The translations under genes were made by a program, and so were the position numbers. A stretch of DNA of 40,397 nucleotides from a virus. Taxonomy: Duplodnaviria > Heunggongvirae > Uroviricota > Caudoviricetes. The DNA lies in IMG/VR virus record IMGVR_UViG_2541047757_000012. One strand, written 5' to 3'. The notes under the pieces were generated by a model. The model saw only the letters and a list, made by a program, of their open reading frames with translations, made no database searches and had not been told where the DNA came from. Positions 24,361 to 25,889 of this stretch are shown in pieces. Each line of letters starts with the position of its first letter. Position 1 is the first letter of the stretch.

Positions 24361-24386
24361 CAACAAAAAACCCGCCGAAACGGGTT
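24361..24386 (-). terminator. hok mRNA terminator-like hairpin
   Basis: Minus-strand stem AACCCG/CGGGTT followed by T-rich tract, about 70 nt downstream of the hok stop; second hairpin at 24426-24447 in the 3' UTR. Confidence 0.4.
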
Positions 24387-24454
24387 AAGCGCGGGTGCGT
24401 TGAGGATGCCTGACTCATCAGAGGTGGCGAGGGATTTCTCCCTCGCCTGGTCTC

Positions 24455-24610
24455 TTACTCCTCAGGTTCGTAAGCTGTGAAGACAGCGACCTCCGTCTGG
24501 CCGGTTCGGATTCGTACCTCGCAGAGGTCTTTCCTCGTTACCAGTGCCGTCACTATGACGGTTAAACAGATGACGATCAGGGCGACTAACATCGCCTTTT
24601 GCTGCTTCAT
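24455..24610 (-). CDS. hok: Hok/Gef-family type I toxin
   Basis: 51 aa MKQQKAMLVALIVICLTVIVTALVTRKDLCEVRIRTGQTEVAVFTAYEPEE, near-identical to HokD/RelF as I recall it; SD AAGGAGAAG before the ATG at 24610. Confidence 0.8.
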   Translation of the reverse strand: MKQQKAMLVALIVICLTVIVTALVTRKDLCEVRIRTGQTEVAVFTAYEPEE

Positions 24611-24760
24611 AGCCTGCTTCTCCTTGCCTTTCGGCACGTAAGAGGCTAACCTAGATTTGCCGTTCATAGATTGAGCCTCAGATTAATGTTAAGCGTCTTG
24701 CCGGACGCGTAATGTTAACTGGGGCTTTTCTCTGTCTGCCTTACAGTGGCATGCCTGAGG
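24611..24760. promoter_or_regulatory. hok leader region, expected site of Sok-like antisense RNA and mok overlap
   Basis: Inverted repeat TCTGTCTGCC...GGCAGACAG at 24730-24770; in hok/sok loci the antisense RNA is encoded opposite the leader. Exact boundaries not determinable by eye. Confidence 0.35.
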
Positions 24761-24948
24761 CAGACAGCCTCAAGCACCCGCAGCAATCTTACCGACACCG
24801 ATAAGAAAACGCTATTTTTTATTGCCAGCACCTTCTATCCAGGCTAATTTATCTGCGTCAGAACGGCGCAATGCGCTCGCCTGAGATACGTTTACTTGCC
24901 ATGGTAACAACAGGTAACGGCAATTGTTGTTTCTGTTTTGTTTCCTTC

Positions 24949-24979
24949 AAAAACCCCGGACCATCAATCCGGGGTTTTT
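24949..24979. terminator. Bidirectional intrinsic terminator
   Basis: A5, stem CCCCGGA (24954-24960) / TCCGGGG (24968-24974), T5. Confidence 0.55.
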
Positions 24980-24984
24980 GTTTG

Positions 24985-25068
24985 TTAACCCCAACGGCAA
25001 ATCGAATACACCACCAGCGCCACCGCCATCACCATTCCTACCGTTGCGAATGCTTCAGGCCAAGTCAT
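24985..25068 (-). CDS. Hypothetical 27-aa hydrophobic peptide (absent from ORF track)
   Basis: ATGA start/stop overlap with upstream gene at 25065-25068; GGAGG 9 nt upstream; translation MTWPEAFATVGMVMAVALVVYSICRWG; terminator immediately downstream. Confidence 0.4.
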   Translation of the reverse strand: MTWPEAFATVGMVMAVALVVYSICRWG

Positions 25069-25889
25069 CGTAAAATATCCTCCACACCTACCAACCCGTT
25101 CTGCTTCAGATATTCCATCGCCTTATCAGGCAAGCTGCTTAAACTATTGGCGTACTTTAAGGAGTGAGCCAGACGCTTAACCCACATTGTTAATTCGCTA
25201 ACCTGGTTACCTGGCACTGGCGACGCTACTGTCTGTTCCAGAACGTCATCAGGTACTACCGGCTCTACTGCCAACTGACTGGCATATTTGTTAATGGTAA
25301 CGATAAGCTCTTGCTCGGCCTCATCCAGACAATCACCAACACCTCGCCTGTCACCGTCAAAATCATCGAAATCGGCACGAATCCTGGCAACCTCCCGGAT
25401 TGCGGACAACACTTCACCAGGAATTAGCGGAGAGTTGGTTGACGTTTCCGAAATTTCCCGAAAATTATTGGTTGACGAATCCTTGTTTTCCCGAAAGTTT
25501 CCTGACTGAAGCATGGCTTCGCGGCAATCGTTCCATCCTTCAGCATAATCACTATACGCAAGAGGCCAACCTCTTATGTATTCACGCGGCAACTTATCAG
25601 GCACTACCAGCGCTGGCGATGATGCATAAAGTGGTGTTATTTTTGCCCGAAAATCACCTACTTTATGCAGTCGCACCCACCGTTCGACTTCTGCTTTGTC
25701 AGAATACATAGCGGTGAACGTATTATATTCATGGTCAATTTGCGTGAAGGTTGCCTTCCACGCCACCGGCTCTGCTGCCAGTGAGGCCAGTGCAATCTGC
25801 GCCAGTTCCATTTGTTCGCCACGGGCAAGCCCGTTTTCAAGCGGATTTTTAATGAACAATTCAATACGTTCTTTGGTAATAGTGGTCAT
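25065..25889 (-). CDS. Hypothetical phage protein
   Basis: 274-aa ORF; contains an imperfect 33-bp tandem duplication at 25437-25502. Confidence 0.55.
   Translation of the reverse strand: MTTITKERIELFIKNPLENGLARGEQMELAQIALASLAAEPVAWKATFTQIDHEYNTFTAMYSDKAEVERWVRLHKVGDFRAKITPLYASSPALVVPDKLPREYIRGWPLAYSDYAEGWNDCREAMLQSGNFRENKDSSTNNFREISETSTNSPLIPGEVLSAIREVARIRADFDDFDGDRRGVGDCLDEAEQELIVTINKYASQLAVEPVVPDDVLEQTVASPVPGNQVSELTMWVKRLAHSLKYANSLSSLPDKAMEYLKQNGLVGVEDILR

Follow-up and report, generated by a model that had tools for sequence, protein, structure and literature searches.

A 27-codon open reading frame (ORF) on the minus strand of a lambda-like prophage is very probably a real protein-coding gene, as judged from sequence comparison among phage loci. 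The DNA in which we analyzed it, here called the window, is the complete 40,397-nucleotide stretch of IMG/VR record IMGVR_UViG_2541047757_000012. Our best explanation for this microgene, namely that it codes for a real early membrane microprotein that is translationally coupled to the preceding gene, is oriented N-out/C-in and functions by helix packing, has as a whole a probability of roughly 0.55. The comparisons described below establish purifying selection on the protein, modularity, coupling, an early-gene setting and a wide family. The last component of this explanation, that the microprotein is a modulator that would act through packing of its helix, is a tentative one and may well prove incorrect. 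The features of the window that are relevant to this analysis are as follows.

24985..25068, minus strand: 27-codon microprotein gene encoding MTWPEAFATVGMVMAVALVVYSICRWG, with stop TAA; assigned from the ORF, its conservation and dN/dS
25079..25083, minus strand: Shine-Dalgarno sequence GGAGG, inside the last codons of the upstream gene and 10 nt before the ATG
25065..25068, minus strand: ATGA start/stop overlap (translational coupling), with the ATG at 25068-25066 and the upstream TGA at 25067-25065
25065..25889, minus strand: upstream 274-aa mosaic Ea-type gene (phrog_5117 / phrog_14306 / phrog_660), a coupled partner that is not fixed
24949..24979, no single strand: bidirectional intrinsic terminator with A5, a 7-bp GC stem, a 7-nt loop and T5
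24455..24779, minus strand: neighbouring hok/sok locus, a separate unit, with hok at 24455-24610, a mok-like frame to 24667 and sok at 24605-24779

The initial annotation of this region had described a small ORF coupled to the upstream gene by an ATGA overlap, a single predicted transmembrane helix and a 7-bp GC stem with T5 after the ORF, all of which are present. Specifically, the overlap is at 25068-25065 (-), mean Kyte-Doolittle hydropathy is 2.26 over residues 7-24, and the stem, which is flanked by A5 as well as T5, is at 24949-24979. It had also described the ORF as unannotated, and indeed nothing is annotated over it in the identical prophages of seven E. coli genomes. The only numerical correction concerns the GGAGG sequence, placed 9 nt upstream of the ATG, for which the actual distance is 10 nt (25083-25079). 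A scan of the window revealed that 6 of 197 ATG-initiated ORFs of 20-40 aa are equally hydrophobic, so the ORF alone is not beyond chance, and the evidence for a real gene comes from comparison with other loci rather than from the ORF itself. The nearest promoter-like site is at 25362-25390 (-), ~300 nt upstream of the microgene and within the upstream gene.

The terminator hairpin begins five bases past the TAA of the microgene and is composed of A5 (24979-24975), CCCCGGA (24974-24968), the loop ttgatgg, TCCGGGG (24960-24954) and T5 (24953-24949). It has a folding energy of -23.7 kcal/mol (z = -3.9) that is equaled by 0 of 200 shuffled sequences, and a fold of the whole region gave no robust RNA structure except this one. 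Because an A-run precedes the stem the terminator works on both strands, and it was also listed on the plus strand by the terminator scan. In the window it ends the operon and insulates the hok/sok locus.

The initial annotation had named a lack of conservation of the reading frame in related phages as part of what would refute it, and the frame is conserved in 95 phage records. These were recovered by tblastn with 59-89% identity to the peptide (coverage of at least 80% in 92 of them) and include 933W, VT2-Sakai, VT1-Sakai, ArgO145 and PhiR12, as well as the virulent Vequintavirinae Av-05 and 18-1-2. When nine annotated phage records were opened, the ORF was found to start on the stop of the preceding gene in all nine and to be annotated in none. 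A 161-nt query matched 1253 of 5426 complete E. coli genomes (at least 23%), and among the K-12 prophages the two examined, e14 and Rac, contain no copy of the microgene. A DNA pattern for the first seven codons added 120 IMG/VR loci, for 131 loci in all, among which the ORF is exactly 27 codons long in 122; there are 56 distinct DNA sequences that code for 32 distinct peptides. With one genome searched per species, the strict 27-codon pattern ending in ...RWG* was found only in E. coli and Shigella. A protein database search with the 45-aa in-frame translation from the window added Salmonella and E. albertii, and yielded only sporadic 'hypothetical protein' calls.

Changes among these loci follow the reading frame. 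Pooled Nei-Gojobori dN/dS is 0.27 in frame versus 0.99 and 1.93 in the other two sense frames, and nucleotide diversity is 0.34 at third codon positions versus 0.15 at first and 0.10 at second positions. Residues G11, A15, A17 and R25 are each kept through four synonymous codons and G27 through three, and in-frame insertions (repeats) in the helix give rise to 29- and 31-aa variants. Note that the exact codon-antisense frame has a dN/dS of 0.26, the same as the sense frame (0.27), so dN/dS is unable to pick the strand because the antisense frame mirrors the sense value. The conserved ATG, Shine-Dalgarno sequence, stop and length are what identify the sense frame as the one presumably translated. 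Plus strand antisense ORFs of 98 aa and 49 aa, which extend into the unrelated flanks, were considered and rejected as shadow frames, given that their starts and stops are not conserved and that a low dN/dS in them is a reflection of the sense strand value.

Several loci deviate from the 27-codon form. In the Shigella phage POCJ13 (L011, 1501-1584) codon 3 is changed from TGG to a TAG stop, a 40-aa form has an in-frame upstream ATG that gives MKIEYQDAAGGES followed by the 27 aa, and other variants read through into unrelated C-terminal tails (these variants are from L011, L022, L025 and similar loci, and from proteins P0029-P0031, P0014, P0016 and P0024). The POCJ13 stop, together with the existence of truncated and extended copies, implies that the microgene is dispensable. 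In Av-05 (L006) and 18-1-2 (L007), an EaA-like gene is followed by the coupled microgene at 1501-1584 with 81% peptide identity, so the module has passed between virulent and temperate phages.

The microgene is a compact unit at a mosaic joint. Homology between loci is confined to a stretch that starts at the Shine-Dalgarno sequence, ~15 nt before the ATG, and runs as far as the stop codon. On the upstream side, the proteins that precede the microgene fall into 28 clusters across the 131 loci, and include DUF551 proteins ending in ...WMPLPEPPQEVN, proteins ending in ...NGLISVEDILR (as in the window), the 933W coiled-coil protein, a clamp-like 189-aa protein, a DNA polymerase and others. Most upstream genes of the E. 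coli group have one of two endings, ...WMPLPEPPQEV(N/K/R) or ...NGLISVEDILR. Despite this variety of partners, the great majority of 48 upstream sequence classes have GGAGG or GGAGGTG at an equal distance from the start. The ATGA overlap is present at 105 of the 131 loci and a one-base TGATG overlap, which places the two genes in a different relative frame, at a further 17, for 122 coupled loci together. A programmed -1 frameshift that would fuse the microprotein to the upstream protein was rejected since there is no slippery sequence and the 17 TGATG loci use a different relative frame. As a side observation, the 933W gene at 2034-2504 that precedes the microgene (L003), and its relative in L018, have annotated N-termini that begin with a frame-shifted 3' remnant of DUF551 (..TLDAATRTAAGGE..), and the annotated starts of both genes are probably too far upstream.

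On the downstream side the DNA diverges right past the microgene stop into 44 classes. The hok gene is located within 600 nt downstream in 47 of the 131 loci (36%), including 933W and the window, and other downstream neighbours are a DUF4222 gene followed by xis/int, an opposite-strand toxin-antitoxin pair and other genes. The initial annotation had pointed out that the ORF sits next to a hok locus. This association is frequent, and the two units do adjoin in the window, but it is not obligatory and in the window the terminator separates them; with hok near only 36% of loci, an obligatory regulatory link to hok was rejected. A terminator is found within 70 nt past the stop in 15 of the 131 homologous loci, which places the window terminator with the arrangement of this prophage rather than with the module, because so few loci have one nearby.

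In the window the microgene is located in the nin region of a lambda-like prophage, between P and Q, and by this position it would be transcribed with the delayed-early genes. DNA that is 99.9% identical is present in E. coli QA-1986 630, where the order is replication protein P, several small genes, the microgene locus, hokD, DUF968, RusA, Q and tRNAs. A 98.9% identical prophage of E. coli AVS0790 has DUF1367 and DUF1364 genes after hokD, and the window likewise has DUF1367 and DUF1364 genes before its Q gene. In 933W-type phages the gene array that contains the microgene forms the distal part of the leftward operon. The 274-aa ORF that precedes the microgene in the window (25065-25889) matches three PHROG families of unknown function, with phrog_5117 at its N-terminus, phrog_14306 in the middle and phrog_660/924 at its C-terminus. 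PGAP calls it two pseudogene fragments, one of them DUF551, in the identical prophages. The ORF is intact in the window and may be a functional chimera that was wrongly flagged as a pseudogene.

The hok/sok locus is complete, with an Rfam sok match of 112 bits (E = 3e-26) at 24605-24779, and hokD is annotated in the identical prophages. Several additional observations were made around it. A sub-threshold match to isrK, a Salmonella prophage sRNA, is located directly after hok at 24365-24446 (-) (26.9 bits versus a gathering score of 50, E = 0.0025) and ends at a terminator at 24386-24369. Weak plus strand matches to sRNA families at 24878-24985 all end at the bidirectional terminator and probably reflect the hairpin alone; a short plus strand transcript that ends at this terminator, such as sok read-through, is possible. 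Between the terminator and the hok transcript start there is also a TTG-initiated ORF of 30 codons, MKETKQKQQLPLPVVTMASKRISGERIAPF, at 24858-24950 (-), that matches no family, and this same stretch should contain the hok promoter. Elsewhere in the window, the 19-nt sequence CATTCGCATCAAAGGAGAG is present at the gene ends at ~26679 and ~26185 and just upstream of the gene start at ~27609 (minus strand). It encodes ..IRIKGE, includes the Shine-Dalgarno sequence of the next gene, and resembles the type of repeated boundary sequence that permits recombination of lambdoid modules.

The microgene also probably belongs to a wider phage family, a conclusion that we hold with good though not full confidence. 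The pattern for the first seven codons also matched short hydrophobic ORFs with quite different helices, and for this reason IMG/VR was also scanned with the other three proline codons of the motif. Outside of the E. coli group, 71 of 304 matches mark the start of an 18-40-codon ORF that includes a transmembrane-grade stretch, versus 0 of 51 for a decoy motif in which Pro and Glu were swapped (Fisher p = 6e-6), and 2.0% of random ATGA sites in the same contigs start such ORFs. This divergent set comprises 57 distinct peptides from contigs of 29-70% GC, as compared with 32 peptides in the core set. We propose to define the family by an M-x-W-P-E/D-A-hydrophobic N-terminus, one helix and a length of 21-38 aa, a definition into which the window peptide falls. 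Conservation of the motif is partly a matter of ascertainment, since the search patterns fixed residues 1-7; positions 15, 17, 21 and 25 were unconstrained by the search. At these positions the divergent set has C, A or S at 15 in 41 of 57 peptides, A at 17 in 27 of 57, W at 21 in 19 of 56 and R or K at 25 in 24 of 50. The window peptide, with A15, A17, Y21 and R25, exhibits the same register of small, small, aromatic and basic residues. Mean net charge in the divergent set is -0.95 over the first eight residues and +0.70 over the last eight. In two pairs of divergent members, synonymous changes outnumber non-synonymous codon changes by 8 versus 4 and by 4 versus 1, with flanks that are unrelated.

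Genes with Pfam names that neighbour members of the wider family are RecT, YqaJ, DUF669, AAA_24, DNA polymerase III alpha, ligase, Q, an excisionase-type HTH protein, DUF551, Ea22 and a Tad2-like protein, and these Pfam-named neighbours are genes for early functions, replication or recombination, with no lysis or virion/structural gene among them. In an Achromobacter-type prophage, a member lies just upstream (~230 nt) of the gene for an integrase with 87-92% identity to those of Achromobacter. The microgene occupies the same position, before xis/int, in VT1-Sakai, which is suggestive of common descent. A tblastn search of cultured phages with two divergent peptides and one consensus gave nothing, for which low-complexity masking is a possible cause. 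Overall, common descent of the family members appears likely from these sequence patterns, with peptides that are too short for significant profile scores. That these genes constitute a large unrecognised family of phage membrane microproteins, with 21-38 residues and a near-invariant M-x-W-P-E/D-A start, which is carried in early operons of temperate and virulent phages (including 933W and the Sakai phages) of hosts ranging from 29 to 70% GC, is a somewhat better than even proposition in our estimate.

With regard to function, our best explanation runs as follows. The microgene would be the final cistron in the transcript of an array of delayed-early accessory genes, and its translation would proceed by termination-reinitiation coupling to the Ea-type gene in front of it, whichever that is. 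Its product is predicted to be a 27-residue single-pass protein that inserts into the inner membrane, with a short acidic cap, M-T-W-P-E-A, on the periplasmic side, an 18-residue helix from F7 to C24 and a basic and aromatic cytoplasmic anchor formed by R25-W26-G27. We infer this N-out/C-in topology from the distribution of charge and from analogy to the Pf3 coat protein; it would place the W-P cap and E5 at the outer face of the membrane and R25-W26 at the inner face. The small-residue face of the helix (G11, A15, A17) and the conserved termini suggest that the helix may pack against a membrane partner, which could be a host or a phage protein, early in infection. The setting would likely be host takeover, exclusion or anti-defence. 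The initial annotation had also proposed a membrane modulator, and such a role may apply. A role as a holin was rejected, as the position of the microgene between P and Q puts it ahead of the late region, family neighbours are early only and the C-terminal tail is just three residues.

Several other explanations for the microgene deserve to be weighed against this one. The initial annotation had raised the possibility of a second small type I toxin, meaning a membrane-damaging product that is kept in check by an antisense RNA and thus a second killer beside hok. The product is small and hydrophobic with a single helix (27 aa, hydropathy of 2.26), 47 of 131 loci have hok no more than 600 nt downstream, and some family members have weak sub-threshold matches to Hok/MokW profiles. 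These profile matches reflect hydrophobicity only. The window peptide has no Pfam match to HOK_GEF (PF01848), for which the best value, from one relative, is E = 0.37, and the window has its true hok in a different ORF, at 24455-24610. A search for a nearby antisense RNA, as had been recommended, found neither a plus strand promoter-like site suited to reading across the ORF nor an RNA family over it, with sok, which belongs to hok, the sole RNA found; note that the promoter scan is insensitive and missed the sok promoter as well. The stronger point is that flanks are not conserved between loci. Because the loci share no DNA past the stop or beyond ~15 nt before the ATG, no conserved antisense gene is possible. 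The microgene furthermore combines a good Shine-Dalgarno sequence with coupling inside an operon, without a promoter of its own or a sequestered leader, and in the window it is separated from hok by the terminator. Ala, Val and Gly are abundant in its helix, where particular positions are conserved, and the conserved small-residue face and termini would argue against unspecific membrane damage. Finally, it is kept in virulent phages where prophage stabilisation is meaningless. With no place for a conserved antisense RNA, no promoter of its own and retention in virulent phages, the type I toxin reading is improbable.

A second reading that we regard as about equally improbable is that the conserved 84 nt are a DNA or RNA boundary element, either a recombination linker or a device that retains ribosomes up to the operon end. 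The location of the ORF exactly at a mosaic joint would fit with such an element, as would recurrence of the ...PPQEVN 3' end before different genes and the presence of CATTCGCATCAAAGGAGAG at three gene ends or starts in the window, short repeated junctions being common in this region. This reading conflicts with variation that is concentrated at third codon positions, with the use of 3-4 synonymous codons at invariant residues, with a length fixed at 27 codons and indels that are in frame, and with the same protein pattern being present in phages of 29-70% GC that have unalignable DNA. The microprotein could also be a dedicated membrane anchor or subunit of the upstream Ea/DUF551-type protein, with coupling serving to match their amounts. 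Such a role is compatible with overlap of the start with the upstream stop in 122 of 131 loci, with the predominance of two C-terminal types among upstream genes of the E. coli group and with one divergent member that follows a DUF551/Ea22 protein. It is hard to reconcile with 28 unrelated upstream clusters that include the 933W coiled-coil protein, the clamp-like 189-aa protein and a DNA polymerase, with DUF551 being present in only 1 of 46 upstream proteins of the wider family, or with upstream homology that ends ~15 nt before the ATG, and we therefore consider it unlikely. A more specific proposal is that of an early membrane protein for superinfection exclusion, or for countering a membrane-bound host defence effector. 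T4 Imm and HK97 gp15 are small early membrane proteins with roles of the exclusion or counter-defence type. The microgene is located among early accessory genes and, in the wider family, one of the neighbouring genes is Tad2-like, which is a domain that counters Thoeris defence, but neither the peptide nor its neighbours have PADLOC matches. Taken by itself we see this as a rather unlikely outcome, and it is a sub-case of our best explanation, in which the helix binds a membrane partner, not a true alternative.

Neither the peptide nor any of ten relatives has a significant match in Pfam, NCBIfam, PHROG or PADLOC, in scans that also took in the neighbours. Two family members align end to end with positions 33-55 of phrog_4612, a 57-position profile of unknown function, with E values of 0.22 and 0.45 that are not significant; this alignment is what is expected if that PHROG contains N-terminally over-extended calls of the same ORF, such as 45-aa calls. 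A literature search for the peptide strings, or for 'WPEA' together with phage, found neither, and the Sakai ribosome-profiling and Enterobacteriaceae microproteome papers do not list the peptide in their supplements. The sporadic gene calls that do exist frequently carry a false N-terminal extension; they are labelled 'hypothetical protein', 'bacteriophage protein' or, in error, 'DUF551 domain-containing protein, partial'. Genome annotation systematically overlooks small membrane proteins, and this microgene is unannotated in the reference Shiga-toxin phages 933W, VT2-Sakai and VT1-Sakai, as it is in roughly one in four complete E. coli genomes. A rule based on the motif would recover such genes, and would correct the calls that are extended or misnamed 'DUF551 domain-containing protein, partial'. 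If the wider family is real, then it represents a compact, selected module among the early genes of phages with very different hosts, which would point to a common membrane target for takeover, exclusion or anti-defence. Conservation of both helix ends over a 29-70% GC range would then imply either a membrane target that is both specific and widely conserved or a mechanism of insertion or recognition that is shared. With 27 residues, the microprotein is also a tractable object for mutagenesis.

Small single-pass membrane proteins are a known kind of protein, while this family and its N-terminal motif appear to be undescribed. The type I toxins Hok/Gef, TisB, IbsC and ShoB resemble the microprotein in being very small, with one hydrophobic helix, and are often located in prophages. 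The microprotein differs from them in being a coupled cistron with position-specific conservation (G11, A15, A17, R25 and the N-terminal WPEA) for which no antisense RNA or folded leader was found. KdpF, AcrZ, MgtS and CydX are likewise single small helices, and the packing that our best explanation proposes would be like that of KdpF, AcrZ or MgtS. These four are 25-50-residue proteins with small-residue packing faces that bind a larger membrane protein. KdpF (TIGR02115) is the sole NCBIfam model with a weak match, covering 12 hydrophobic residues (E = 0.029, 14.4 bits versus a cut-off of 26.85), and identity with KdpF was rejected on the basis of this score below cut-off and a context that is a prophage and not a kdp operon. 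Unlike all four of these proteins, the microprotein is phage-encoded, has its own invariant N-terminal motif and exhibits no homology to them.

The Pf3 coat protein resembles the microprotein in layout, with a short acidic N-tail, one helix and a basic residue followed by Trp after the helix. It is an N-out protein with a single span that is inserted in a YidC-dependent manner, and it has ..GIRWIK at this point as compared with ..ICRWG in the window peptide. The microprotein differs in that it is not structural, is located among early genes and has no sequence relationship to the coat protein. Phages are also known to encode single-span proteins that act on host membrane machinery, such as T4 Imm, SPO1 gp56, phi29 p1 and p16.7 and phiX174 E, the last of which is comparable in its transmembrane domain. 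These are larger than the microprotein (~80-130 aa), have soluble domains and show no sequence similarity to it, and phiX174 E, again unlike the microprotein, is a lysis protein that is not an early gene.
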